IMG/VR virus record: IMGVR_UViG_2870479586_000005
From: a virus
Lineage: Duplodnaviria > Heunggongvirae > Uroviricota > Caudoviricetes
DNA length: 42,950 bases
Strand: one strand, 5' to 3'
Shown here piece after piece: positions 1 to 42,950 of this stretch (position 1 is its first letter; each line of letters starts with the position of its first letter). The notes beneath the pieces were generated by a model. It had not been told where the DNA came from. It did not search any database and worked only from the letters and a program-made list of their open reading frames with translations. The translations under genes and the position numbers were made by a program.

Positions 1-1044
1 TTACTCCAGAGACAGCCGAACCGAAAAACCGTTTTCAGCGAGCGTCAGACTCAGTGTGTTGATAGTCCAGTCCCGGTCCTCCTCGGTCCCGAATCCTTGA
101 GTTGTGACTTTGCATTCTGCTGTCAGCGACACTAAATCGAGCGTCGCTGGCGTCGTGTACGTCATAGAGAACTCTTTTTTAGCTGCACCGCCCTTGAGCC
201 CTGGTGCAGCTTCTTTCGCTGCGTCGAGCGACGGCTCAACTGCCGGCCATTCAATGACAGGATCGCCGCCACTACCTGTCCGCAATTCTTTGATCTGCCC
301 AGTTGCTGTGTCGTGATATTTAATCAGATACGTCGGTTCCGGATTTTCGCCACCGCTACCACTATCGCCACTTTGTCCATTTCTCGAATAGCCCCAGCTG
401 GAGTTATCACGACGAGTTAGCGTGTAGTGCTGGAGCGGAGCACCGCTAACAGATTCGCCCGCGCCGCGCGGCAGGAATATCCAGTACCCGCCCGCGGGTT
501 TACTCACCGCATCGAATCTCGTTGCGAGCCGCGACATCAGGTGCATATCTGACTCGCCGACCTGATCGAGTTGCGTGATAACATTGTCTGCAAACCGCTT
601 TGATACGCGTGGTTTTAGCCCATTATCGCTCGCTATTGTCGCAACGATATCGCTGACAGTGACGTCGCTCCAGGAACGAGTCTTTTTGCTCTGAACTGTC
701 GGAGATCCTTTTGCTGCGTTCATCGGAGCCGCTTTTGCTGTGAAATCAACTACCCGGGGTTCACCGCCACTGCTAGCACCGTCAACGATGTATATCCCTT
801 TATCAATTATCTGATTACCGAAACCGAGCCCAATACTGATTTTTACTCCGCGGGCCGGAATTTTCAGAGTTTCAGAAACTATTGCTACGCGGAGTTCGTC
901 TGTCTGTTTACTGGAGCCGCCGTAATCTGTCAGCGTGATATTGATCAAACCTTTTCTTATTTTATCCGTGATGTTTTTATTATCAGCAGATATATAAAAA
1001 TTAGGTTTCCACGCCTCCACGCCAGTATTTACGTAATCACTCAT
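1..1044 (-). CDS. phage tail protein D (P2 gpD-like, late control D family)
   Basis: 347-aa ORF with stop at window edge; terminal position of a P2-type tail module after U and X; family assigned from recalled resemblance only. Confidence 0.55.
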   Translation of the reverse strand: MSDYVNTGVEAWKPNFYISADNKNITDKIRKGLINITLTDYGGSSKQTDELRVAIVSETLKIPARGVKISIGLGFGNQIIDKGIYIVDGASSGGEPRVVDFTAKAAPMNAAKGSPTVQSKKTRSWSDVTVSDIVATIASDNGLKPRVSKRFADNVITQLDQVGESDMHLMSRLATRFDAVSKPAGGYWIFLPRGAGESVSGAPLQHYTLTRRDNSSWGYSRNGQSGDSGSGGENPEPTYLIKYHDTATGQIKELRTGSGGDPVIEWPAVEPSLDAAKEAAPGLKGGAAKKEFSMTYTTPATLDLVSLTAECKVTTQGFGTEEDRDWTINTLSLTLAENGFSVRLSLE

Positions 1045-1432: not shown

Positions 1433-1861
1433 TTAATCTAGCGAAGCTCCATAATATTCGAGCGTGAGTGAAAAGTCCTGCGATTTAGGTGTTCCGCCCA
1501 TCAAAAAGCTGTTTTGCGTTTCAGTTAGTTCTCGCAGCACCCAGTACCCTTTCACCTCCCCGGTCCCCAGCACTAGCTGCTGGGGTTCTCCCGTGTTCCC
1601 GAGCGCTCGCAAATCTGTCAACAGGCCGACGCCGCACCCGTCAAGAAATAAAGCGTTTATCTTTCCATCGATAGTAATTGTGGGGTTCGGTCGTCCGGTT
1701 ATCTGCAACGCGTCGTTTTTCCCGAATCGTGTTTGCTGAGCCCAGCGCCAGGCGTCACTACGTTGCAGTTTGTTGTACGCTACTGTTGATATAGCAAAAA
1801 TGAAATCACCCAGGCCGAGCATGATATCCTCAGCACCGTTTATTGCATCACTCATTGTCAC
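1433..1861 (-). CDS. phage tail protein U (gpU-like)
   Basis: 142-aa ORF; LQRSDAWRWA...FLDG...DFSLTL pattern recalls P2 gpU; immediately downstream of the tape measure. Confidence 0.75.
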   Translation of the reverse strand: MTMSDAINGAEDIMLGLGDFIFAISTVAYNKLQRSDAWRWAQQTRFGKNDALQITGRPNPTITIDGKINALFLDGCGVGLLTDLRALGNTGEPQQLVLGTGEVKGYWVLRELTETQNSFLMGGTPKSQDFSLTLEYYGASLD

Positions 1862-3496
1862 CCCGCCGCCGCTGGTTTATCAAACATCGCGCCACGATTG
1901 TACGAACTCGCAGCCTGTCTCAGTCCATCGAGCACCCCCGACGCTGCAGATTGTTGTATTGACTGCGGATCTGTCGCACCGACAATATTGATTTCGATTT
2001 TATTGTTTTGCTCCGGCGCAGGTGTCGAGACTGCCTGCTTCAACGTATCAATATTTAACGTCGACGAATCCAGTGCTGCAGGCGCGGTATTTTTATTTAC
2101 CATCCCGGATAATGGATTAACAAACGCGAGCATTGATTCTGCCTGAGATTTTGCCTGTTCTTGCCGTTCTGGATGCCGCATATTTTCGACAGCCTCTTCG
2201 GCTTTTGCCTTCGCAATATTATCAGCAGTCAATCCAGCGTTCGGTGAATATTTACCTCCCGAATCCATAAACTCTTGATATGCCCGATTATATTCGTCAT
2301 TATAAGTTTTCTGTTCTTCATCTGATTTTTCATCCGGAATAAGCCACTCCAGTTTCTTTACGACAGCCCATATAATCTTCCCGAATTTGACGCAACCTTC
2401 TCCAAAATTGACGATGCCATCCCACATTTTTTTCATATTTTCTGGTTTTACCCACTCAGTAATTGTGCTGACAAAACCACCCTGATTATCCTTAAACCAG
2501 GATGTAAATGTTTCACGTACTGAGTCAAACGTCGGCGCGAGTTCCCCCCGATTTTACCGAGTGTATCTGCAAGTCCCGACGTAATAGAGCCCCACAGATT
2601 TGTCACTGATACATGCGCACGCGCCGCCCCTTCCGCACCCTCTTTTGTTAACAAATTCGACTTTTGCGCGTCAGACATTGTCTGTTCCCAGCTTTTACCC
2701 GTCGCCTTCATATACGTCATGATCTTATTAGCCTCGCCCCCATGAGCTGGTCAGCGAGGCTCGCCGCTTGCTTCTCATCTTTCATTTCAGAGATGCGACG
2801 CATAACCTCATTAAACTGTTTTTCCCGATCCCAGCCAGCCATTCGTTTTTTCGTCAGGCCAATTTGAAATAACATGGGATTCAGGCTTTTTTCGTTTCCG
2901 ATTTCGCCGATTTTATTTGTAAGTTCTTCAGACAAATCCCCGATATTTTCGCCGTTCAGGCCCGCGGCTTTACCAATATTTTCCCACGCAGCGTATTTTT
3001 CGACGCCAACGCCGTAGGACTTCGCCAGACCGAGTTTTTCTGACGTCTCTGCATTCATTGCCAGCGAACCAGCTGCAGCACCGCCAATGAGCCCTGCCGC
3101 GCCAAGTGTCCCCCATTTGATACCCCGCCCCGTAGCCCTCACCGCACCTGCGGCGGCTCGTCCGCCCCATTTTGCAGCTCCTTTTGCGCGACCCGTCCAC
3201 TTCTCCAGCCGCTGTTTTTTAGCAAGTTGAGTATTCAGCGCCTCCTGGTCCTGCGTTGTCGCTTTTATCCGACGGTCCAGCTTTTGATACTGAGCAGATA
3301 AATCAGAAACGTCTTTACCTGCCAGTTTCATTGCTGCGATTTTGTCTTTTAATTTATCCTGACTTTTCGTTAATTTCCCGACAGTAGACGACGTCTGCCG
3401 AATCGCATCATTGAGTTCTGTTGTACCGCGACGAAACGACGGGTCTATTCGCCCACCGAATACAACCTGCGTTTTAAAGTTTTGAGAAATAGCCAT
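1858..3496 (-). CDS. tail tape measure protein (gpT-like), interrupted by two apparent 1-nt frameshifts
   Basis: Three consecutive minus-strand ORFs (2717-3496, 2448-2720, 1858-2436) with coiled-coil, Gly/Ala-rich tape-measure character; frames rejoin if one base is added in the C5 run at 2737-2741 and in the C6 run at 2544-2549. Confidence 0.7.
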
Positions 3497-4428: not shown

Positions 4429-5930
4429 TCAGGCTGCTTCTTTAAAAAGGGAGGCCAGTGCTTCAACTGTATAGTCATTATTAATGCGGTACATTAACGT
4501 AATTGTTTGTGCCGGAGATTTCGGACCAAAATCAACATTAATATAAAGATTACCCGCAGCCAGGCTTTCTTTTGTATTCAGCTCACTGTCTAACCACGCA
4601 CGCCCTCCGTTAATCGCACCCTGCTCCTCTAATTTGTGCAGATATGCGTTTATCGACTCGACAACGTCTGTTCCGAGGTGCAGGTCTATCGGACGATCAA
4701 TAAAATCGGTCATCATTGCCCGGGCTATAGAATCCTCAATTACGTCAGCTGTTCGACGAACGCTCTCGAAAGACCATTGCGGGCTGAGGCTGCACAAATA
4801 GTTACCCCAGTGTCTGAACCCGTCATAGCGAATAATCGTGCTGACCTGGCTGGCATTCAGCAGGTTCGCTGTGCAGTTTGTCTCACCAATAATAAAATCG
4901 TCGACTTGTTCAAGCCCTGTAACTCCGTAGATATTCTGGTTCGATTTACTCCACCAGAATCCTTTTTCATTATCAATTCGGGCTCGTAAACCAGCAGCGA
5001 TAGCTGAATACGGACGAGATAACCCACTGACATCACTCGTAGAATAAACGCGAGGTCGCAACAACTCAGCGCGTCCGCCGAGTTTTTGCCTGCGATTCAC
5101 AACGTCTGCAGGGGTAGCAGCGCGCGGAGAGTCGATATAACACACTCCCCGGAGTTTATTTGCAACCACTTCAAGCTGAGCCGCTATTTCGTCTCGTGCG
5201 CTGTAATCCGGCGCTATAATAATTCGCGGGGTAACTTCGTTAATTTGCGCTGACGTCAAAAGCGAATTAATTCCGGCGATAACATTTTCGCTCATATCAG
5301 CGTCGTCGCTACTCTCTACAACGCGAACAACAACGATTAATGCATCAGTCTGATTTAAAATATCAGAAATAGCGGGGGGCAGAGTCCCGTATTTCCCGAG
5401 CAGGGCGGCTTTCTTCTGACTACCTGCAATTAATACAGGAGAATTAATCGGGAATGCGTCATCCGTTCCACCTGATAAATTTGTAGGTGGAAGACCAAAT
5501 ACTGTACCGGTTCCGGAATGCTCGCCACCAAAAGTTACATTAATCCACTCTCCGTCTGTTTTCCCCTCTCTATATTCCTGATTCTGATCATACATTTTGC
5601 CGGGGTCATTCCCGGCTCCGTAATCATCGTTAATTTTTTTGTTCCGTCGGGCAGCGTGCTATATCCTGGAGTGCAGGTTGCGCCCTCAACTGTCATATCT
5701 ACAATTTCAACAACCCATTTATTCCCGTCGCTGCCCGGTGATACAGTTGAAAACTCAACGAGATTATCAGCCAGCGATGAGCCCCACGTTAATGATGCTC
5801 TCGTAGCCTCCGCGACGTTCGTCGCAGTACCAACAATCCCAATCACGGAAATATCTACTGTGTTGATCTCTTTTGTGCCGTCGTCGTATTCGAGCGTGCG
5901 AATACCGTGCAAAAAATTAGTTACGCTCAT
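4429..5930 (-). CDS. contractile tail sheath protein (P2 FI-like), split across two frames at a T7/A7 run
   Basis: ORF 5535-5930 begins with a sheath-like N-terminus (MSVTNFLHGIRTLEYDDGTKEINTVDISVIGIVGTA); ORF 4429-5595 carries the rest (FPINSPVLIAG...IIRYDGFRHWGN...LYINVDF); frames join with one extra base in the run at 5634-5640. Confidence 0.75.
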
Positions 5931-8121: not shown

Positions 8122-9042
8122 CTACCCCATTTGCACGCTGAGTTTGATTTCTGTGCAGTACGGAGCCTGTCCGACGCCAGCAATCACATCCTCTGTTGGC
8201 GATATCAGAATCACACGCTCCGTTCCGTCACGATGTATCGCGTCGTAAATTCCTGACAGGGCTGCTGTCGCCCCGATTTTATGTTGTGTAGCCACGTATA
8301 TAGCTAAATCGCTTTGAGCACCGTTGAGCAACACGTTCTGATCGGGACCGAGCCCCGCTACGATAACGGCTTCAACCCGGTAATTCAGGTTCGACGCAGG
8401 TTTTACAGTCACGAAATCAGTCAGCGGTCGAGTATCGTCAGGAGACAGGGCCGCATTCACTGTATTCAGTAGTGATTGAGGCGGAGTGCCGTCGCCGGTT
8501 CGCGACAAAACATACATATCGACGTATCCAGGCTGGGTCACCGGCGGGCCGTACGCCTGAGCTGACAGAACGTCGGGATCACTCGACAGCGCGAAATAGT
8601 TATAGGCGTTCGTACTGCCGGCAGTATTCCGCGCGTACCATGATAGCTGTATGCGATGACGATACTCGTCGTCACTCTCGTAAACCGCCTCAGTCGGAGG
8701 AATTGCGTCAGGATTAGCTGGCGTTATCAACAGCCGCAGGCAGTCAAAATTAGCGCCGATCTGGTCGAGGTCACTCCCTTTTGCAAACGCGAGCAATACA
8801 GCGAGCATCCCCTGATTTACCCGAGCTGTAATAATGATTTCTCTGTATGCAACTATTTCCAGCAGTTTAACGGCCGGGTCTGACTCCAGGAGTGCGTTAA
8901 ATTGTGGATATAATATCTGCAATTCTGACAGTAGACTGGATTTAACATCTGAAAATAATGGGGTTTTAACGAATGCTGGCGGCGGCAGCAGACTCATATC
9001 AATAGTTTTCACTATCGAATTCTGAACTGTTGATGTTATCAA
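8122..9042 (-). CDS. baseplate protein J (gpJ-like)
   Basis: 306-aa ORF following the W-like gene; size and position match P2 J. Confidence 0.75.
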   Translation of the reverse strand: MITSTVQNSIVKTIDMSLLPPPAFVKTPLFSDVKSSLLSELQILYPQFNALLESDPAVKLLEIVAYREIIITARVNQGMLAVLLAFAKGSDLDQIGANFDCLRLLITPANPDAIPPTEAVYESDDEYRHRIQLSWYARNTAGSTNAYNYFALSSDPDVLSAQAYGPPVTQPGYVDMYVLSRTGDGTPPQSLLNTVNAALSPDDTRPLTDFVTVKPASNLNYRVEAVIVAGLGPDQNVLLNGAQSDLAIYVATQHKIGATAALSGIYDAIHRDGTERVILISPTEDVIAGVGQAPYCTEIKLSVQMG

Positions 9043-9428
9043 AATATCAGTTCCATATTATTAAACTCTAATCGCTGTTGTGTTTCGATATCTGTTGCGA
9101 TAATTAATATTGTTATTTTCCCGATGTCCACTGCTAACACATTTATTCTGTCAATTCTGACGCGTGGTTCCCAGCGTGCTATTGCTCCTGCACTTTCCAT
9201 TATTATTCTCATAGCAAGCGACGGATCAGTGGGATTATCAACGAGGTCAAATAATTTGCTGCCGTATTCCGGCAACATTACACGGGTTCCCAGCGGGGTC
9301 GTTAAAATATCAACGATAGACTGACAAATGTGATCAGTCCCCGATAAAGGCTTACCGGTGTTACGGTCCATTCCAAGCATATTTACGCCATTGGTTGGTT
9401 CGGTTGTTGTGTTTCCCCGTTCGGACAT
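9039..9428 (-). CDS. baseplate wedge protein W (GPW/gp25-like)
   Basis: 129-aa ORF; LGMDRNTGKPLSG...SIVDILTTPLGTRVMLPEYGS...WEPRV recalls P2 gpW. Confidence 0.8.
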   Translation of the reverse strand: MSERGNTTTEPTNGVNMLGMDRNTGKPLSGTDHICQSIVDILTTPLGTRVMLPEYGSKLFDLVDNPTDPSLAMRIIMESAGAIARWEPRVRIDRINVLAVDIGKITILIIATDIETQQRLEFNNMELIF

Positions 9429-10299
9429 ATATGAGTGTGTCCGTTGTACGTTGTGCGGACCTCAGTCATTGTGCCTTGTCGGTCCTGCACCTCTTGCCCT
9501 GCTAACACACTACCGCGAGTTGTGATATTACCTGTTCCACCGTTATCTCCAGTGACAGAAATATCGTTACGGAATGTCGCTAATTTATCTACTACTAATG
9601 TCTCGGTAATATGCGTTGGACCAGCTAGTGTTATACCACCCGGAGCCCACGCGCTGATTGTTTGAGCTGTCAGCGATATTCTGTTCGCAGCAGTAACACT
9701 AACAGAACTCGTTGCTATAACGTTCACTAAATCAGCATGTGCGTTAATTGTATCTGTCGCTGTGACATTAATAATATCAGCGTCTGCGTTAATTAATTTC
9801 CCACCATGGATATTAACTACATTTTCGCTATTAATAGTAACATCTGCGCGTCCAAATATTTCTATTTCAGACTCACCGAGTATTTTTACCACGCCGTCCG
9901 GTACGCCCTGCCATGTCAGAGTGTGATTTTTTGTGTTATACGTCATCGTAGCCCCGTCACAGTATGCAGTGACATGATCATGGGGTCATTGCTTGGCGGA
10001 GCTTTGTCGTCAATGTGCAGCCCGAGCATAACTACACCGTTCCGCGTATCCCCACCCTCAGAAACAACAGTAACGGGATCGCCCACTGATGGTGCGCTCC
10101 AGTCGACGCGTTCTGAGGTGGCGTGAGTAAACCACTGCAGCCAGCCTGACTGGTGTTCGCCACCAAATGAGACTCGGCAGCGTGGAGGATTCATTTTAAC
10201 TGCAGCTATCGTGCCGCGTTTAACTGCGTCACGCAGCCTGCGCGCGTTCTCCGCTGCAGCATATTCATCGTCCGATTGGGCCATAATAGTCGCCCTCAT
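9383..10299 (-). CDS. baseplate hub/spike protein V (gpV-like), encoded as two ORFs
   Basis: ORF 9943-10299 resembles the gpV N-terminal region (CRVSFGG...WLQWFTHA...WSAPSVG); ORF 9383-9946 resembles the C-terminal spike (beta-helical repeats, HTH metal-site motif); junction is an ATGA overlap beside a G4 run at 9982-9985. Confidence 0.65.
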
Positions 10300-10801
10300 G
10301 TTCTGCGCCGATATCTGGTGCTATTCCGACGTATATATTTTTCAGGGTCCCCTGTGAGGGATAATCGAAAATATCTGGACCAACGCCTACAACCTGCGTG
10401 AACGACACGCACTGAACTGAATGCGAACCGACTGACTGCCCGTTTTTAATCCAGTCGCACGGTTCCGCGTCGCTGAATTTTGCCGGTTTAGTTCCGGGAC
10501 CGAACATTCGCCCATTGATCCAGCTCGTCATATAGAGCGCTGCATTCTGCGATTTCAGTCCGTACTGATCAGCTGCAAATTCACGCAGCAAATACAAATT
10601 ACACGACAGCTCGACTGACTGAATTGAGCCTGGAACCGATTCGTCACTCTGTGACCAGTTGCTGATTTCCAGGAACAGAGCTGGCGTTTCAAATCCAGCC
10701 GGAATTTCCGGATAAATTCCGAATGTTTTGATGAACGGTATTTGTAAAACCGCGCCTTTAACGCGATCAAGATATTCGTCAAATGCATCCAGTCCGCTCA
10801 T
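10265..10801 (-). CDS. hypothetical virion protein (possible tail completion protein)
   Basis: 178-aa ORF between head and baseplate genes; assignment by position only. Confidence 0.3.
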   Translation of the reverse strand: MSGLDAFDEYLDRVKGAVLQIPFIKTFGIYPEIPAGFETPALFLEISNWSQSDESVPGSIQSVELSCNLYLLREFAADQYGLKSQNAALYMTSWINGRMFGPGTKPAKFSDAEPCDWIKNGQSVGSHSVQCVSFTQVVGVGPDIFDYPSQGTLKNIYVGIAPDIGAEHEGDYYGPIGR

Positions 10802-11100
10802 AATCGTTTACCTGTTTTTGGGTCTACGTGGACATTACCTTTCACGCGACCGCGCAAATCTTTCTCAAAAAAGCCCATAAAAACAGGGCCAATGTTTTCA
10901 AAAATATAATCATCGATAGCATCCTCCAGCGCGTCGTGCACAGGTACGCGAGCCTCTTCGATTCCTCCGCGATCCAGTCGAATCCAGACACTTTTCGCAC
11001 CGTAGCGTTTCGCTACGAATGAATCGGGCCAACTCATCATCGCCAGCCCTGCACTTTTGGGTGTAAAAGTTGCCCCTCTAGCGCCTTTTTTGGTTTTCAA
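10798..11100 (-). CDS. hypothetical virion protein (TTG start; may be 3' part of a frameshifted gene with 11214-11477)
   Basis: 100-aa ORF; its reading frame stays open upstream to about 11245 and can be joined to the 87-aa ORF by a 1-nt change near 11230-11240. Confidence 0.3.
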   Translation of the reverse strand: MKTKKGARGATFTPKSAGLAMMSWPDSFVAKRYGAKSVWIRLDRGGIEEARVPVHDALEDAIDDYIFENIGPVFMGFFEKDLRGRVKGNVHVDPKTGKRL

Positions 11101-11213: not shown

Positions 11214-11477
11214 TCAGGTCTCCTGCCCTTCTTTTGTAAAATTACGGCGCTTAATGAACGGCTTGATTCGTTTATCTACGGCCTTATGATTTTTAGCTGC
11301 CAGTGCAGTCAAAATCATTCCTGCTGAAATTCGGTGCATATGTTTTGCAGTTCGGTTCAGCGCCCTGTTGTATACCATTAACATTTGATGTTGCGTCGCG
11401 CTGATTTCGACTCTGAGCTGCTCCAGCGCCGAAACATCGATATCGAACATCTGCGCGTTACTACGTAAATCGGCCAC
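11214..11477 (-). CDS. hypothetical virion protein
   Basis: 87-aa ORF downstream of the FII-like gene. Confidence 0.3.
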   Translation of the reverse strand: MADLRSNAQMFDIDVSALEQLRVEISATQHQMLMVYNRALNRTAKHMHRISAGMILTALAAKNHKAVDKRIKPFIKRRNFTKEGQET

Positions 11478-19288: not shown

Positions 19289-19643
19289 TAAAAATCCTCA
19301 CCGGAACCGGAAATACCCAAAATGAAAAAATACTAAAAATGAGTGAGTTTTTGCGCGTCTACCGACCCTCGGTGTTTTGGATTTCGGAAAGGACCCGCGA
19401 CCAGGGTGGGCTATCTCCCTTTCAGGACAGGAATCGGGGGCTCGCATCAGGTTCATCAAACTCGACTGTAGCCTCGCGGCGTACTTGTTTGCATACATCA
19501 GCTTTGTGTATCTGATTATCAGCGTAAGCTTTCACTTTGGCAGCGAGCCATCCTTTTGCGCTGTATCGATAGACTACCGAACAAGTTTTCGATATATGTA
19601 TATATCTTGAACTTATTGATATCCTTACAGAAAAACAACAACC

Positions 19644-20917: not shown

Positions 20918-21255
20918 TATTTCATCCCCTTATCTGATTTCCATAAACGAGCTTGTGACATGATCCGCAACAGTGATGTAACGCTGATTACTGATGCAAC
21001 CAGTGCACCAATGGCGGGAGAGACTTTTACTGTTACGGGAGGGTTCAGGTGACTCAGCACCGCGTTCAGAATACCGGTAATGATGGCTGATGCTGTTTCA
21101 GCGCAATACACACCACCAACAAATGAAATGAGTGCGAAAATAACCTGCTTCCAGAATCGATGCTGCCCGGATGACAACACATAGAGAGCTGCGCCTGCCA
21201 GCGCACAGATCATCACTGCAGGTGTTGCCTCAGGAAATAACGCAGCAAACGTCAC
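20917..21255 (-). CDS. putative holin
   Basis: 112-aa ORF (GTG start in track, internal Met nearby) with multiple TM helices; first gene after the Q-like gene. Confidence 0.5.
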   Translation of the reverse strand: MTFAALFPEATPAVMICALAGAALYVLSSGQHRFWKQVIFALISFVGGVYCAETASAIITGILNAVLSHLNPPVTVKVSPAIGALVASVISVTSLLRIMSQARLWKSDKGMK

Positions 21256-21496
21256 CCCGCCGAGCCAGCAGCAACGCCAGCGGTTAGAGGTTCAGACATG
21301 ATTTTTCCTGATTCAGAAACGACAAAACCCGCCGTGGCGAGGTTCTTAGAGATTTGGCAACATACCAAATTAGCGTTAAATATGGCCTATTTTGTTCGGT
21401 TTTGCAAGCATTATACGCAAACGTCGTCTAAATGGTTCTGATAATGATGCAAAGTTGCAAGAAGTGCCACTTCATCAAGTGCTCTCACCGCCTCTT

Positions 21497-22081
21497 TCAT
21501 TCCTGCCCAGTGCGGGAGTATGTTTCGCACCAGGTGGAACGAGAAACAGACAACATTCCAGCTAGCGCAGATCCGGCCATCTCCTTAAAATCCTCGCGTT
21601 TATTTGCTGCTGCGACCGCCTGCACGGACAACCACACCAACGAAAGCAGGCGCTTGACTACTTTTCTCTGAGTTGACGCAGAGATGTTTCCTTTATAGCG
21701 ACTCCAGACAGCCTCACAAATAGCTGTTTGGTGTTTGAACGCCAGGTTACCACCGTAGCAATAGCGCAACCACGCCTGCTGGCTAACGTCGAGCGCGTTC
21801 ACAGCGCGGCGCCACGATGAATCAGCGAATTCAAAATCATTCATCGGCGGCGCGGGGCGACGTCTGCTGAAACTTTCCAGGGCATAAACTGGCGTAACCA
21901 GAGCATCAACGGTCCGGTCCTCCAGTTGCACACGATGAATATGTTTGCGTGGGTATGCGTTTTTATCTGCTGGCGGGTGCTCACACAATGCTTCCAGTTG
22001 CCCCTTAGAACCACCAGACAAATCCCGCAATGCAGCGCGCAGTTTTATGCGGGTATATTCCAATAAATACTCGTTACTCAT
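21497..22081 (-). CDS. putative late-gene regulator (antiterminator Q-like by position)
   Basis: 194-aa ORF immediately upstream of the lysis genes and downstream of nin-like genes; no sequence motif recognised. Confidence 0.4.
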   Translation of the reverse strand: MSNEYLLEYTRIKLRAALRDLSGGSKGQLEALCEHPPADKNAYPRKHIHRVQLEDRTVDALVTPVYALESFSRRRPAPPMNDFEFADSSWRRAVNALDVSQQAWLRYCYGGNLAFKHQTAICEAVWSRYKGNISASTQRKVVKRLLSLVWLSVQAVAAANKREDFKEMAGSALAGMLSVSRSTWCETYSRTGQE

Positions 22082-26085: not shown

Positions 26086-26509
26086 CTCTCTCGGTCCAAC
26101 AGTCTTTCGAAAGCCCTGATCAAAGGGCCTTGATAAATTAGCAGTGCGTTGAAAACAGATAGTTATTCCCATCAGTTCCAACGTAATACACATCAAAAAA
26201 ATCACCATTCTTTTGCTCTACGTCAACACCTACCCTTAAAAAAATAATTCTCCAAGAATGAGAAAGTTATTGTGTGTATTAGATAAGATATGAGCTGACA
26301 CATCTATGGCGTGGAGCCAAACCTAATATGACAGTCCGCTCTGTGCCAAGAGCGAACATTACAAACACACTAAAATTTATGTTTGTACTTCGCTGTAGCC
26401 ACCTAAAAGTATTATTGCGGGTGGTTTCGTGACAATGTTAGATATTCTTCATTTTGAATTGATTACTGAATTAAGATAAAACCACCCGAATTAAAACTAT
26501 CAAAAGTAT

Positions 26510-27391
26510 CTATGGTTGTTCATCACTCTCTTCTGAAAGTATTTGTACTACTTGTCCACACTCTCCACATACTACGTGTAATTGACTATCTTCTTCGGAC
26601 TTGAAAATCTCACTAACTAAGCTATGACAGTTAGGGCATTTTATCTCGTTATCAAAACCTATGAATTTAAGGAATAAGTTTTGAATTAATGAAACTGCAG
26701 TGCAAGTGAGTATAAGGCAAATTTTAGCGTCAGGAATGTTTTTGTTTGAAGAGTGCACCGTCTCTGCGGAAAAATCCCATGCAGACTCAATCGTTGAGCG
26801 GCAATATTTTCTGAGACTTGAGTTTCGTTTTCCTGCGGCATACAACCCAATAATAATTCGGCAAATATTTTTAAAGTCAGCTGCTTTAATATTTTCTTTT
26901 TTTAATATATCCTCATGAGTTTTATAAAGGTGAGCAGCAAGCTCAACCATGCTCTCTCTACAAGTTAGTCCAATACTTTGAATATCTTCAGGGGCCTTAA
27001 TATTATTCAGAGCAACAGCAGAAGCATTTAACCTCCGGCTAATAGAACGAAGCATATCTATATCTAAAGGTAACTCATCAATAACATGTTTGAAATCATT
27101 GCTATGTCTTGCTTGTAGTCTTTGAGTTATACCCAAATGAAAAGAATATGCTTCATCAGCAGAAAAGAAAAACTCATTTTGAGTGTATAAGTTTAAAGGA
27201 ACGTTTTCACCTTCAGCAACCCACCAGTTACCATCATTTTTTGTTCTGACGTTCCAAATGTTAACCTCAAAACCTAAATCATTAAATGTTTGCTCAACTT
27301 GCATGTTTTTTATGTTTTCTATATTTTGAGTTTTTAAATATTCAGTAATTCTTTTCTCAGCATCGATTCTGTATTCTGGTGTCATGTGCAA
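26510..27391 (-). CDS. hypothetical protein with C-terminal zinc ribbon
   Basis: 293-aa ORF in AT-rich DNA; C-terminal CPNC...CGEC four-Cys motif. Confidence 0.55.
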   Translation of the reverse strand: MHMTPEYRIDAEKRITEYLKTQNIENIKNMQVEQTFNDLGFEVNIWNVRTKNDGNWWVAEGENVPLNLYTQNEFFFSADEAYSFHLGITQRLQARHSNDFKHVIDELPLDIDMLRSISRRLNASAVALNNIKAPEDIQSIGLTCRESMVELAAHLYKTHEDILKKENIKAADFKNICRIIIGLYAAGKRNSSLRKYCRSTIESAWDFSAETVHSSNKNIPDAKICLILTCTAVSLIQNLFLKFIGFDNEIKCPNCHSLVSEIFKSEEDSQLHVVCGECGQVVQILSEESDEQP

Positions 27392-27449
27392 TCCCTTTTA
27401 ATAAGATACTAAAAGTAAAAGCGCATTATAGCATAACACATACAATGCG

Positions 27450-27695
27450 TTAATGCGTATGCTTGTGCCCTGTAATGATTTCAAAATGAACGTTTGCATA
27501 CAACTGTTTTTTGATCTGGTTGTATTGCAACAGAATGATTTCCACTGCTCGTTCATAGCTGATCTTCAGTTTAGTTAGCATGTCCGTTCTGTGCCTTTTA
27601 AGTTCATTCTTGCCATACTTAGCCGACTTGAATGCTATTTCTTCTATCACTTTTTTAGTTGGCATATTGGGGCTAGAGTTCCGTTCCTCGCTCAC
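27450..27695 (-). CDS. small hypothetical protein
   Basis: 81-aa ORF (GTG start in track) just upstream of the 293-aa gene; start uncertain. Confidence 0.3.
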   Translation of the reverse strand: MSEERNSSPNMPTKKVIEEIAFKSAKYGKNELKRHRTDMLTKLKISYERAVEIILLQYNQIKKQLYANVHFEIITGHKHTH

Positions 27696-27862
27696 GGCAG
27701 ACCTTAAGCTCAGTTAGTTCGTCTGCTCCGTGCCAGAGCGAACGTTGTAAACACAACATTGCTTTAGTCGACAGGGGCCAATAGGCTACTGCGTACCCTG
27801 TGCTAGAGTAAGTATCAAATAGGTATTATCCATGTATATGACTGCTCGATGATGCATCATAA

Positions 27863-28942
27863 TCACAAACGTTCATGATCAAGACTGTTTTCATCATTAT
27901 TTAAGTCATTAAGCATTTGAAGTGCGTCACGAGTACGTTCATAATTACTTTCAGGGTATAATCTAAACTTCATATTTTCCAAATTAATTAATTTTCTTTT
28001 TAATTTGAAGGAATCGTTAGAAAGTGACATTTCGTAAAAATCAATATCCCCCTGTCTGGATTGTAATGCACTCATAACGGAAAACTTAGCAGATTCTTTG
28101 AACCTCAAACCGAATGTAACATCGCTTAACCGAAATGGTGAGTTCTGTAAACCTTGATTATTAATAACTCGATATTCATTTTCATATTTCCAAGAAGGAG
28201 CTTTGCTGAGAAGAATGACCCTATCAATCTCTTTTTTGGCAGTATTCTTTATATTATCATTGCTGCCAAATAACATATCATGAACTTGTTGAGTTCTAAT
28301 AAATCGATTCCCTTTGTAATCAACTGGATGGATATCTAAAGAGTCATTTTCAGAAGTATCATATCCAATACAAAATCCCTTATGTTGATCAGCATAATGC
28401 GACCACATTAAGGGGCAGTTAAATTTTCTTGCTAATGAAAGAACACCAACCTCATAATTTTTTAGCAAGTATCTTTTAATATAAAAACTGGCGCTAGCAT
28501 AAAAATCATCACCATAATTATCAACATCCCACGAAATATTATCAATTAATTTTCGAGCTTCGCTTTCACCTAGCATTTCAATTTTCTCTAATGTCCTTAG
28601 ACCTTTATATTTAATTTTTTTTGCTGCTTTCGCTAGTTCCTTTTGATGATTTTCTTTTACTAATTTATGAAGGATAGAGTTCAATTCATTGACATTATTG
28701 ATGTCGTTTAACACGGAAGGATTACAATCCAAAGGGTCATTGAATGTTGTTGGATCAGCAAAATACAGTCTATCGCTTACAAGCAAGTCAAGACTATCAA
28801 CACTAAAGCTTTTATATTTATATAATCGAGAGGGAATATTCTGTATCATCACTTTTATCTCATAAATTTTTTTGATATTATCTGCCAATTCTAGCCCCAT
28901 GGGCAATAGCAAAATCGAAAAATACTCTCTACGTAAGGGCAA
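27863..28942 (-). CDS. DUF2971-like protein (candidate defence-associated)
   Basis: 359-aa ORF in AT-rich DNA; RLYKYKSF...LYFADPTTFNDPLDC...PLMWSHYADQHKGFCIGYD...KYENEYRV motifs recalled as DUF2971 hallmarks; start may be at an internal Met. Confidence 0.5.
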   Translation of the reverse strand: MPLRREYFSILLLPMGLELADNIKKIYEIKVMIQNIPSRLYKYKSFSVDSLDLLVSDRLYFADPTTFNDPLDCNPSVLNDINNVNELNSILHKLVKENHQKELAKAAKKIKYKGLRTLEKIEMLGESEARKLIDNISWDVDNYGDDFYASASFYIKRYLLKNYEVGVLSLARKFNCPLMWSHYADQHKGFCIGYDTSENDSLDIHPVDYKGNRFIRTQQVHDMLFGSNDNIKNTAKKEIDRVILLSKAPSWKYENEYRVINNQGLQNSPFRLSDVTFGLRFKESAKFSVMSALQSRQGDIDFYEMSLSNDSFKLKRKLINLENMKFRLYPESNYERTRDALQMLNDLNNDENSLDHERL

Positions 28943-29514
28943 GCCCTTTCCCCATGGATATTCATCAAATTAAGCGGGTGTACTTAGGTCATATTGACCT
29001 GTTCCTAATTGACGATACACCTCGATGTTCATTAAGCCACTTAGAGTGCTGAGACAGATATGAACTGCAGCTTTTCGCTCACTGCTGCCCTTCAGTAAGC
29101 GAAAAAATGCCTACTCGGTGCCATATACAGTCATGGTTATTAACTACAGGGAATAATTCCACACTGAAATTAAATGTCTGCCTTTTACAGTAGAAATAGT
29201 TTCTCCAGGACACTATCCATTGCCGGGCACAATCACTCGGGGTATAACGATATAAAATATGTTCATGATAGTGCAGGTTCGTATATTAAGTTCAGCAGCG
29301 AAAACATGCCTTACAGGTTTCCGGTTTTGGGAGCGTCGTTACAGGATCCTGCGCATACCGTTCCCATCTGTTGAATTAAAGGTTTCACAGCCTTTGCCGA
29401 TATCGCCTTTTACCTTGCCTGTGATGCGTTCAGTGCTCAGCGTTGTTTACTGTAGCTCTCGGAACTGATTACAGACCGCGTCTTAAAAACCAATCCTTAC
29501 TCTAAAGGGAATTC

Positions 29515-38529: not shown

Positions 38530-38859
38530 ATGACCATTTTTAACGGCTTGTTAGAAGCGAAAAAAGGCGCGCTCAAAAACGGTGCGATCCCGGCGCTGGC
38601 CATCGCCATCGACGCCCCTAACAAAAAAGTTGCCGAGAACATCATCATCGGCAAATTGTGGGAAGCCTACCCTGACCACGGCGACAACTATTTCAAACCT
38701 AAAATCTGGGAGGATGCCCCAGGCCAACCGCGCCCAGGCGTCGGTGAGTTTGATGAGACGTTTGCCACAGAACACAGTTTTGATGGCGAAAAATGGGTAG
38801 TTAACCCCCCGCTGATTCAGATAGCGGTTCAGCAGATATCGCACAGGTTAACGACCTGA
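38530..38859 (+). CDS. hypothetical early-left protein
   Basis: 109-aa ORF; ATG directly follows the repeated TAATGAGGAAAGACCA initiation module. Confidence 0.45.
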   Translation: MTIFNGLLEAKKGALKNGAIPALAIAIDAPNKKVAENIIIGKLWEAYPDHGDNYFKPKIWEDAPGQPRPGVGEFDETFATEHSFDGEKWVVNPPLIQIAVQQISHRLTT

Positions 38860-41701: not shown

Positions 41702-41965
41702 ATGAGAAGCGATCACGACATAATCACCAGAGAAGAAATGGTCGAGCTGACGGGAAGCCCACTTAAATCAAAGCAATGTGAGGCTCTTCGCCGGGCTGGA
41801 ATTTTCTTCATGGAAAGGGCTGACGGGCACCCAAAAACAACCTGGGGCCATTTCATGAACCCAATAAAATTTCGCAATTTACAGGAGGTGACGACGCGAA
41901 AAGATGATGAACCTGATTTTGGAGCAATATTTAATGGCCGGAAAGAGAAAGAACCCAGCAGATAA
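41702..41965 (+). CDS. DUF4224-like small protein (possible excision/directionality factor)
   Basis: 87-aa ORF immediately upstream of the integrase; ATG follows the repeated initiation module. Confidence 0.45.
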   Translation: MRSDHDIITREEMVELTGSPLKSKQCEALRRAGIFFMERADGHPKTTWGHFMNPIKFRNLQEVTTRKDDEPDFGAIFNGRKEKEPSR

Positions 41966-42950
41966 CTGGATGCCGCCTCGTGTTTACCAGGGCAAAGCGG
42001 CCTACGAATTCAGGAATAAAGATAACAAAGCGATACGCCTGTGCGCATTGGATGCGCCACGATCAGCCGTATGGCTGGCATATGAAAAAGCGGTCGGTGA
42101 CGAAAAAGAAAGAAATACTTTTCAGGCGCTCGCGGAACAATTCATGACCTCCCCTGATTTTATGGATTTGGCAGTCGAAACCAGGAAAGACTACACAAAA
42201 TATTCCGGAAAAGTTCTGCCTGTCTTCGGGAAGATCGACCCGGATAAAATCAAACCTGAACATATTCGGCGCTATATGGATCAACGCGGTTTATCAAGCC
42301 GAACTCAGGCAAACAGGGAAAAAAGCTTTATGTCCCGGGTATTCCGTTGGGGTTATGAGCGAGGTTATGTCCAGAGGAATCCTTGCCAGGGAGTTAAGCA
42401 GTTTAAAGAGACAGCACGCGAACGTTATATTACGGATGAAGAATATCAGGCCGTTTATGAAGTGTCTCCTGACGTCGTTCGCGTGGCAATGGAGATTGCC
42501 TACTTATGCGTGGCCAGACAGAGTGATGTACTTTCATTGCAGAAAGACCAGCTGTTCAATTCCGGGATCTACATTCGTCAGGGAAAAACCGGCGTTAAGC
42601 AAATCAAAGCCTGGTCGCCTCGTCTGCAGAAAGCGATAGCTCTGGCTCGTTCTCTGCCATTAAAAACGGGAATCAGTAGCCTGTTTGTGATTCATCAAAC
42701 TACCGGTGGCAAGTACACCCGTGATGGTTTTAACTCTCGTTGGCGTGATGTCAAAGCGGCAGCACAGGAAAAATATCCTCATCTGCAAATAGACTTCACA
42801 TTTCATGATCTGAAAGCAAAAGGTATCTCTGATCTGGAAGGCAGCCTGGAAGAGAAGCAAGCAATTTCCGGGCATAAGAACCCACGACAGACAGCTGCCT
42901 ATGACCGAAAAGTTAAAGTAGTGCCCGTAGTTGGTGGCCAGAGAAAATGA
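41904..42950 (+). CDS. tyrosine integrase (site-specific recombinase)
   Basis: 348-aa ORF ending at the window edge; C-terminal catalytic region FHDLKAKG...GHKNPRQTAAYDRK with His and Tyr; true start probably at 41934 or 41970. Confidence 0.85.
   Translation: MMNLILEQYLMAGKRKNPADNWMPPRVYQGKAAYEFRNKDNKAIRLCALDAPRSAVWLAYEKAVGDEKERNTFQALAEQFMTSPDFMDLAVETRKDYTKYSGKVLPVFGKIDPDKIKPEHIRRYMDQRGLSSRTQANREKSFMSRVFRWGYERGYVQRNPCQGVKQFKETARERYITDEEYQAVYEVSPDVVRVAMEIAYLCVARQSDVLSLQKDQLFNSGIYIRQGKTGVKQIKAWSPRLQKAIALARSLPLKTGISSLFVIHQTTGGKYTRDGFNSRWRDVKAAAQEKYPHLQIDFTFHDLKAKGISDLEGSLEEKQAISGHKNPRQTAAYDRKVKVVPVVGGQRK

Follow-up and report, generated by a model that had tools for sequence, protein, structure and literature searches.

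The window (the whole 42,950-nt stretch of DNA that we analysed, positions 1-42950) is a complete prophage that extends from a gpD-like gene (1..1044) to an integrase gene (41904..42950). Its contractile tail and baseplate genes are P2-like (gpD, U, X, tape measure, tube, sheath, V, W, J and I), and its head and packaging genes are lambda-like (terminase gpA, gpW, portal, S49 protease, decoration protein, capsid protein E and FI). Relatives are integrated next to tRNA-Leu and yecA, and the prophage is present in ~440 of 5,426 complete E. coli genomes, many ST131 strains included. A variable accessory slot at ~26100-29100, with minus-strand ORFs at 26510..27391 and 27863..28942, is absent from E. 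coli 22KM0354, where a GIY-YIG nuclease takes its place. The slot's 359-aa DUF2971 protein matched the PADLOC candidate defence family PDC-S31 (E=1e-50), and its 293-aa neighbour in the slot gave only a weak zinc-ribbon match.

The baseplate spike gene V appeared as two minus-strand ORFs, ORF A and ORF B, which share four nucleotides (TCAT on the plus strand, ATGA on the coding strand; Table 1), the layout that the first-pass annotation had described. The longest form of ORF A begins 15 nt upstream of the ATG at 10284, which is the start annotated in most relatives and gives a product of 113 aa. Upon translation, the frame of ORF B was found to be open upstream into a G4 run, as the same annotation had reported: 13 further codons (PHDHVTAYCDGAT) precede its ATG and are bounded by a TGA at 9988..9986, and the first of them, CCC at 9985..9983, lies within the run. 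One added base at this run had been predicted to fuse the two ORFs, and adding a G in silico did yield a 300-aa ORF. The repaired protein is gpV of 22KM0354 except for D289N, and the 3' part is 99.5% identical to residues 101-300 of that gpV. The D289N change is private to the window and sits in a CPDG motif just past the HxH apex motif, at a position where Asp is kept in 19 of 21 aligned homologues. A real polymorphism, relaxed selection or an error could each account for it.

Table 1. Features of the gpV locus and G/C-run contractions elsewhere in the window (contractions relative to 22KM0354)
Feature	Position in the window	Strand	Description
ORF A	10299..9943	minus	118 aa from first ATG; OB domain PF04717
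ORF B	9946..9383	minus	187 aa
gpV 5' part, codons 1-101, original frame	9982..10284	minus	OB-fold domain; 100% identical to residues 1-101 of 22KM0354 gpV
Lesion site	9982..9985		G4 on plus strand (C4 on coding strand), G5 in relatives (alignments)
Out-of-frame tail of ORF A (MIMSLHTVTGLR) and TGA stop	9943..9981	minus	From translations
13 codons (PHDHVTAYCDGAT) of original gpV frame	9947..9985	minus	In neither ORF as written
ATGA overlap	9943..9946	minus	Met114-Thr115 codons (ATG ACG) of intact gene; shifted frame reads TGA
gpV 3' part, codons 114-300 and stop	9383..9946	minus	Presumed beta-helical shaft and apex
HxH (His-Thr-His) apex motif	9439..9431	minus	Residues 283-285 of repaired 300-aa protein
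Asn289 codon AAC	9419..9421	minus	GAC (Asp) in relatives; sole amino-acid difference from closest relatives
gpW/gp25 baseplate wedge gene	9039..9380	minus	PF04965 E=1e-15; start 9380 follows relatives' annotation
Contraction	2543 (2543-2549)		C7 to C6, tape measure
Contraction	2736 (2736-2741)		C6 to C5, tape measure
Contraction	5601 (5601-5605)		G5 to G4, sheath
Contraction	9981		G5 to G4, gpV
Contraction	11225 (11225-11228)		C4 to C3, 226-aa protein
Contraction	21254 (21254-21258)		C5 to C4, putative holin
Contraction	21327 (21327-21330)		C4 to C3, putative holin
Contraction	21513 (21513-21516)		G4 to G3, antiterminator Q
Contraction	32460		C4 to C3, early gene
Contraction	38804		C7 to C6, early gene
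Contraction	41456		C6 to C5, early gene

The product had been called gpV-like, and this identity held for the N-terminal OB domain in ORF A (PF04717, Phage_base_V; E=6e-13, 49.4 bits, cut-off 23.8) and for a C-terminal spike part with its HxH motif in ORF B; the beta-helical shaft between them is presumed from homology and motifs. The model TIGR01644 ('phage baseplate assembly protein V') scored 67.6 bits with ORF A alone and 104.5 bits with an intact relative (cut-off 46.75), and ORF B alone gave no TIGR01644 match. ORF B gave no Pfam match, and hence no PAAR. Profile matches to P2 gpV (PDB 3QR8; E=4.8e-21, profile positions 15-136) and to the R-type pyocin spike PA0616 (PDB 4S37; E=1e-18, profile positions 10-138) each ran as a single stretch over the break, with the PHDHVTAYCDGAT region aligned to 'LHIRFPDGAV' of P2 gpV and 'ETWRFDDGAS' of PA0616. 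The alignment pairs residue 102, where the frame shifts, with P2 residue 97, and the split point nearly coincides with the OB/beta-helix boundary, which also lies at P2 residue 97. In P2 the OB-fold attaches the spike and fragment 97-211 folds alone; an HxH histidine cage near the C-terminus is the criterion for an apex domain (bioRxiv 10.1101/2023.02.25.529910). Alignment of the shaft to that of P2 was weak and non-significant, and an AlphaFold2 monomer built from the intact homologue P0002 with a 23-sequence alignment was unusable (mean pLDDT 53.9, pTM 0.35), too poor for a fold search.

The gene resembles that of P2 gpV in its N-terminal OB-fold, in the unbroken homology across the OB/beta-helix junction, in an HxH motif 16-18 residues from the C-terminus and in its place directly upstream of gpW/gp25, gpJ and gpI. 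The next two genes match PF04965 (gpW/gp25) and PF04865 (gpJ), a position in the baseplate cluster as in annotated relatives. It differs in length, the intact window-type protein having 300 aa and P2 gpV 211 aa with the surplus in the shaft, in being split as written by a one-base gap, and in belonging to a prophage that joins a P2-like tail to a lambda-like head module (capsid protein E, FI, S49 protease). Shafts vary by blocks of 15-22 residues in the alignment of 21 homologues. The likeness to PA0616 extends over residues 2-128 and includes the break point, whereas PA0616 is only 185 aa long, has a shorter shaft and is a tailocin component rather than a phage one. By its sequence the gene encodes a spike of the standard single-chain type, whose extra length relative to P2 gpV is confined to the shaft.

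A comparison with the V genes of related prophages, which the first-pass annotation had called for, showed a G5 run and a single gene in the relatives. Four Escherichia phage records matched positions 9000-10900 by megablast (98.6-98.7% identity); in each, the match exceeds the query by one base, and a single 903-nt 'baseplate assembly protein' gene is present. The region was held by 449 of 5,426 complete E. coli genomes, and the best matches (99.8%; 1,102 bases compared to the 1,101-base query) annotate one 'phage baseplate assembly protein V' gene. EC28, the closest relative in 9300-10400, differs there only by one G (G5 vs G4) and a SNP at 9421. When a 68-nt query centred on the run was used, the G4 allele was found in none of the 440 complete E. 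coli genomes carrying the site, 424 of which matched at 98.6% and 16 at 90-95%. A pattern scan accepting either allele likewise found G4 in none of six IMG/VR contigs, all six having the longer form.

More distant homologues showed the same organisation. The intact protein matched 436 of 50,697 phage records by tblastn; the best 40 of these, phiCTX, ECO1230-10 and Burkholderia, Vibrio and Ralstonia phages among them, all aligned across residues 100-120, and 39 did so as a single piece. A search with ORF B of a set of 5.8 billion proteins recovered 35 clusters from Escherichia, Salmonella, Citrobacter and Cronobacter, with identities as low as 44%. These homologues span 270-323 aa, and in almost all of them PF04717 is part of the same polypeptide; those without an OB match were contig-end partials, one 219-aa Logan protein and one frameshift fusion.

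The segment around the break ranks among the best-conserved parts of the protein across 21 homologues, with P97, S98, P101, H104, V105, T106, Y108, D110, G111 and A112 invariant or nearly so. Seven of these nearly invariant residues (H104, V105, T106, Y108, D110, G111 and A112) belong to the 13 codons that the split discards, in exchange for a 12-residue nonsense tail (MIMSLHTVTGLR) that none of the 21 aligned homologues shares. H283 and H285 of the apex motif are also nearly invariant. Outside E. coli, homologues carry Q, L, E or D in place of Met114, with which ORF B starts. Intact genes likewise contain the ATGA and, five bases before the ATG, the GGGG, which indicates that both are there by chance and not through selection for translational coupling. 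All spike domains lie in one polypeptide in the relatives, and in the window after one added G, but not as the window is written. It is essentially certain that the two ORFs are one gpV gene broken by a one-base loss.

A third homopolymer lesion had been suspected at the G4 run. The lesion does lie there, at that exact base, but it is one of eleven rather than the third. We surveyed the window against 22KM0354, the best overall relative (~99% identity to the whole window), and found eleven G/C runs shortened by one base (Table 1) and no G/C-run expansion anywhere in the window. Nine genes are broken: the tape measure (twice), the sheath, V, the 226-aa protein, the holin, Q and three early genes. 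As a result of translation as written, the tape measure is in three ORFs (1858..2436, 2448..2720 and 2717..3496), the sheath in two (4429..5595 and 5535..5930) and the 226-aa protein in two (10798..11100 and 11214..11477). The contracted fraction climbed with the length of the G/C run, from 0/539 for runs of 3 through 4/112 for runs of 4, 3/20 for runs of 5 and 2/6 for runs of 6 to 2/2 for runs of 7. A/T runs of 4-7 were contracted in 0/537 cases and A/T runs of 8 in 1/2, this being a single T8 site that is polymorphic among relatives (G/C vs A/T, Fisher p ~2e-8).

Other kinds of damage were missing. No substitution-derived stop codon was found in the ~55 genes shared with 22KM0354, no IS element or deletion was among the window's lesions, and most protein segments are 100% identical to those of 22KM0354. 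Eight of the contractions lie in 1-24 kb, and six of these are absent from all four relatives compared, against ~14 isolated SNPs that are private to the window as judged against these four full-length relatives only; other private SNPs in this interval fall in recombination patches. Among complete genomes, the window's allele at 2736 (C5) was found in 2 of 428 and its allele at 38804 in 0 of 442. The relatives have pseudogenes of their own, of the 'internal stop' kind (the portal in EC28 and A42, Q in 22KM0354), whereas the window's lesions are homopolymer-only, and real decay thus looks different.

Six other assemblies (L015-L018 and L021 from Logan, L020 from NCBI) encode precisely the frameshifted product of ORF A (118 or 113 aa); all of them sit on the ST131/SA186 haplotype, which differs from that of the window. 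Relative to SA186, L017 and L018 showed one-base homopolymer deletions only, and L015 and L016 showed homopolymer deletions together with CCWGG miscalls (e.g. CCTGG to CACGG) and one other substitution. L020 had 13 gaps in 4.3 kb, most of them one-base homopolymer changes, and L021 had six gaps, all one-base homopolymer changes; five mismatches were counted in the former and four in the latter. The window's C4 to C3 contraction at 11225 is also present in L020. Homopolymer deletions combined with CCWGG miscalls are the signature of nanopore basecalling on Dcm-methylated DNA. The recurrence of the G4 call in six noisy assemblies of another haplotype indicates that the G5 tract is an error hot-spot. 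We rejected the six as independent support for a real G4 allele, given their load of errors and their different haplotype. They have lost bases from A/T runs too, which the window has not, and the platform or polishing history of the window must therefore differ from theirs. The exact 187-aa ORF B product matched no record in the contig collection.

Errors of this kind have been described for long-read assemblies. Single-base deletions are a systematic error of PacBio-only assemblies; they fall mostly in G or C homopolymers of 4-6 nt, and they truncate genes even at high coverage (ARAMIS, PMC8574707). False deletions in homopolymers of 4-5 nt make up most long-read assembly errors (Kastor, PMC12007338). 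The window resembles these cases in its single-base G/C-run deletions that truncate genes, and under-calling fits its 11 contractions with 0 expansions, their length-dependent rate and the 0 nonsense substitutions. The direction of the changes, their base specificity, their length dependence, the lack of other decay and the recurrence in noisy assemblies all favour an artefact, and we infer that the gpV split probably arose in sequencing or assembly.

The window as written lacks one C of the C5 at codons 100-102, where GAC CCC CAT has turned into GAC CCC ATG. The frame shifts at residue 102 and runs through 12 wrong codons to a TGA stop that overlaps the internal Met114 codon, and a downstream ORF B thereby appears. 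The missing base is probably present in the DNA, as one of eleven G/C homopolymer under-calls, a pattern typical of assemblies that were made from long reads alone or were poorly polished. On this reading the real prophage would make a normal single-chain spike, in which the OB-fold is expected to dock on the tube and baseplate hub and to be followed by the beta-helical shaft and the HxH apex.

The alternative that survives best is a real, recent slipped-strand contraction of the C5 that inactivated gpV in a decaying prophage; we consider it unlikely, although several considerations count against an artefact. Homopolymers are the usual site of real frameshifts, their contraction being the commonest frameshift mutation of all, G/C tracts are intrinsically unstable, and selection does not maintain the tail genes of a silent prophage. 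The ten other lesions in tail, lysis and regulatory genes would fit a dead prophage, the private D289N at a conserved gpV residue would fit relaxed selection, and the C5 allele at 2736 in two complete genomes means that at least one site varies among deposited genomes. After such a deletion, ORF A would be an OB-fold plug with a 12-residue nonsense tail, and ORF B, if translated, a shaft and apex without an OB domain to attach to the tube. Since the OB domain anchors the spike, no working spike and no functional tail would result, except that rare -1 slippage of tRNA-Pro on C_CCC might yield small amounts of the exact wild-type protein.

The spectrum of lesions argues against this history. Each of the 11 events shortened a G/C run; A/T runs of 4-7 are untouched, though slippage would be expected in A/T 6-7-mers no less often than in G/C 4-mers. 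Protein segments flanking the lesions are 100% identical to those of relatives, and nonsense mutations, IS elements and deletions are lacking. The eight indels per ~14 isolated private SNPs in 1-24 kb are far above the indel-to-substitution ratio of E. coli mutation, which is roughly 1:10. The same call has moreover arisen independently in six demonstrably error-laden assemblies. A broader version, in which all eleven contractions are real and stem from a lineage-specific process biased to G/C-tract contraction (e.g. a polymerase or mismatch-repair defect), strikes us as very unlikely. The prophage would in that case have been inactivated gene by gene without substitutions, and gpV would be leaky via -1 slippage on C_CCC.

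The first-pass annotation had also considered a genuine two-gene spike, an idea that the single fused gene in all related prophages and phages did not bear out. Such a spike would consist of an OB adaptor and a separate shaft and apex, translationally coupled through the ATGA and assembling non-covalently. The gene is split almost exactly at the OB/beta-helix boundary, the ATGA with its upstream GGGG could support re-initiation, and T4 gp5* and gp5C remain together after cleavage. Natural spikes of more than one polypeptide do exist, as in T4 gp5 with gp5.4 and T6SS VgrG with PAAR. In the gp5.4/PAAR systems, the separate piece is the PAAR tip rather than the shaft, and the spike has no HxH (10.1101/2023.02.25.529910). 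ORF B differs from these in having no PAAR, in carrying its own HxH apex and in being fused to the OB domain in every relative. The arrangement occurs in no relative and is effectively refuted by that comparison; the putative coupling signals exist in intact genes, Met114 is unconserved, and 13 codons, seven of them nearly invariant, would have been swapped for a nonsense tail. Ten sister lesions in unrelated genes would also need the same explanation, and we give this arrangement next to no credence.

Equally improbable is a regulated switch, in which the amount of spike would be set by phase variation of the G/C tract or by programmed -1 frameshifting: the tract does lie within the coding region and a -1 slip in the P site, on C_CCC, would give back the exact wild-type sequence, but the tract is only 4-5 nt long, G5 is invariant in 440 good genomes, 9990..9975 contains no X_XXY_YYZ slippery heptamer, the relatives read one frame with no conserved two-frame arrangement, and G4 occurs only in assemblies full of other homopolymer errors while the closest relatives have G5.

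As written, the prophage looks heavily pseudogenised, with spike, sheath, tape measure, holin and antiterminator Q all split; in annotation it would be labelled cryptic, or its spike might be described as a novel split form. We believe that the element is probably intact, belonging to a common family of E. coli prophages in which a P2-like tail is combined with a lambda-like head. All frameshifts in the window should be judged together as one artefact class, and the finding matters mainly as quality control, with little biology in it and most likely none that is new. If the lesions were true, the prophage would be dead, a known and common outcome.

Two further observations concern assembly quality. 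A 302-aa protein, cluster P0001, is a fusion of the gpV C-terminus with gpW that begins at the same Met as ORF B (Met114). We rejected it as support for the split: its source, GCA_054903315.1, has G5, and V is broken elsewhere. This E. coli chromosome (CM142812.1) has an extra T at GTTC motifs, at no fewer than six sites in its prophage copy; this different systematic error breaks V and generates the spurious fusion, which is recorded as 'GPW/gp25 family protein'. In the window itself, a two-base GT insertion at 19406-19407 lies within the relatives' G5 run (CCAGGGTGGGC vs CCAGGGGGC), right after a CCAGG (Dcm) site in the intergenic stretch between a 188-aa gene and an 86-aa gene, and may be another basecalling artefact.
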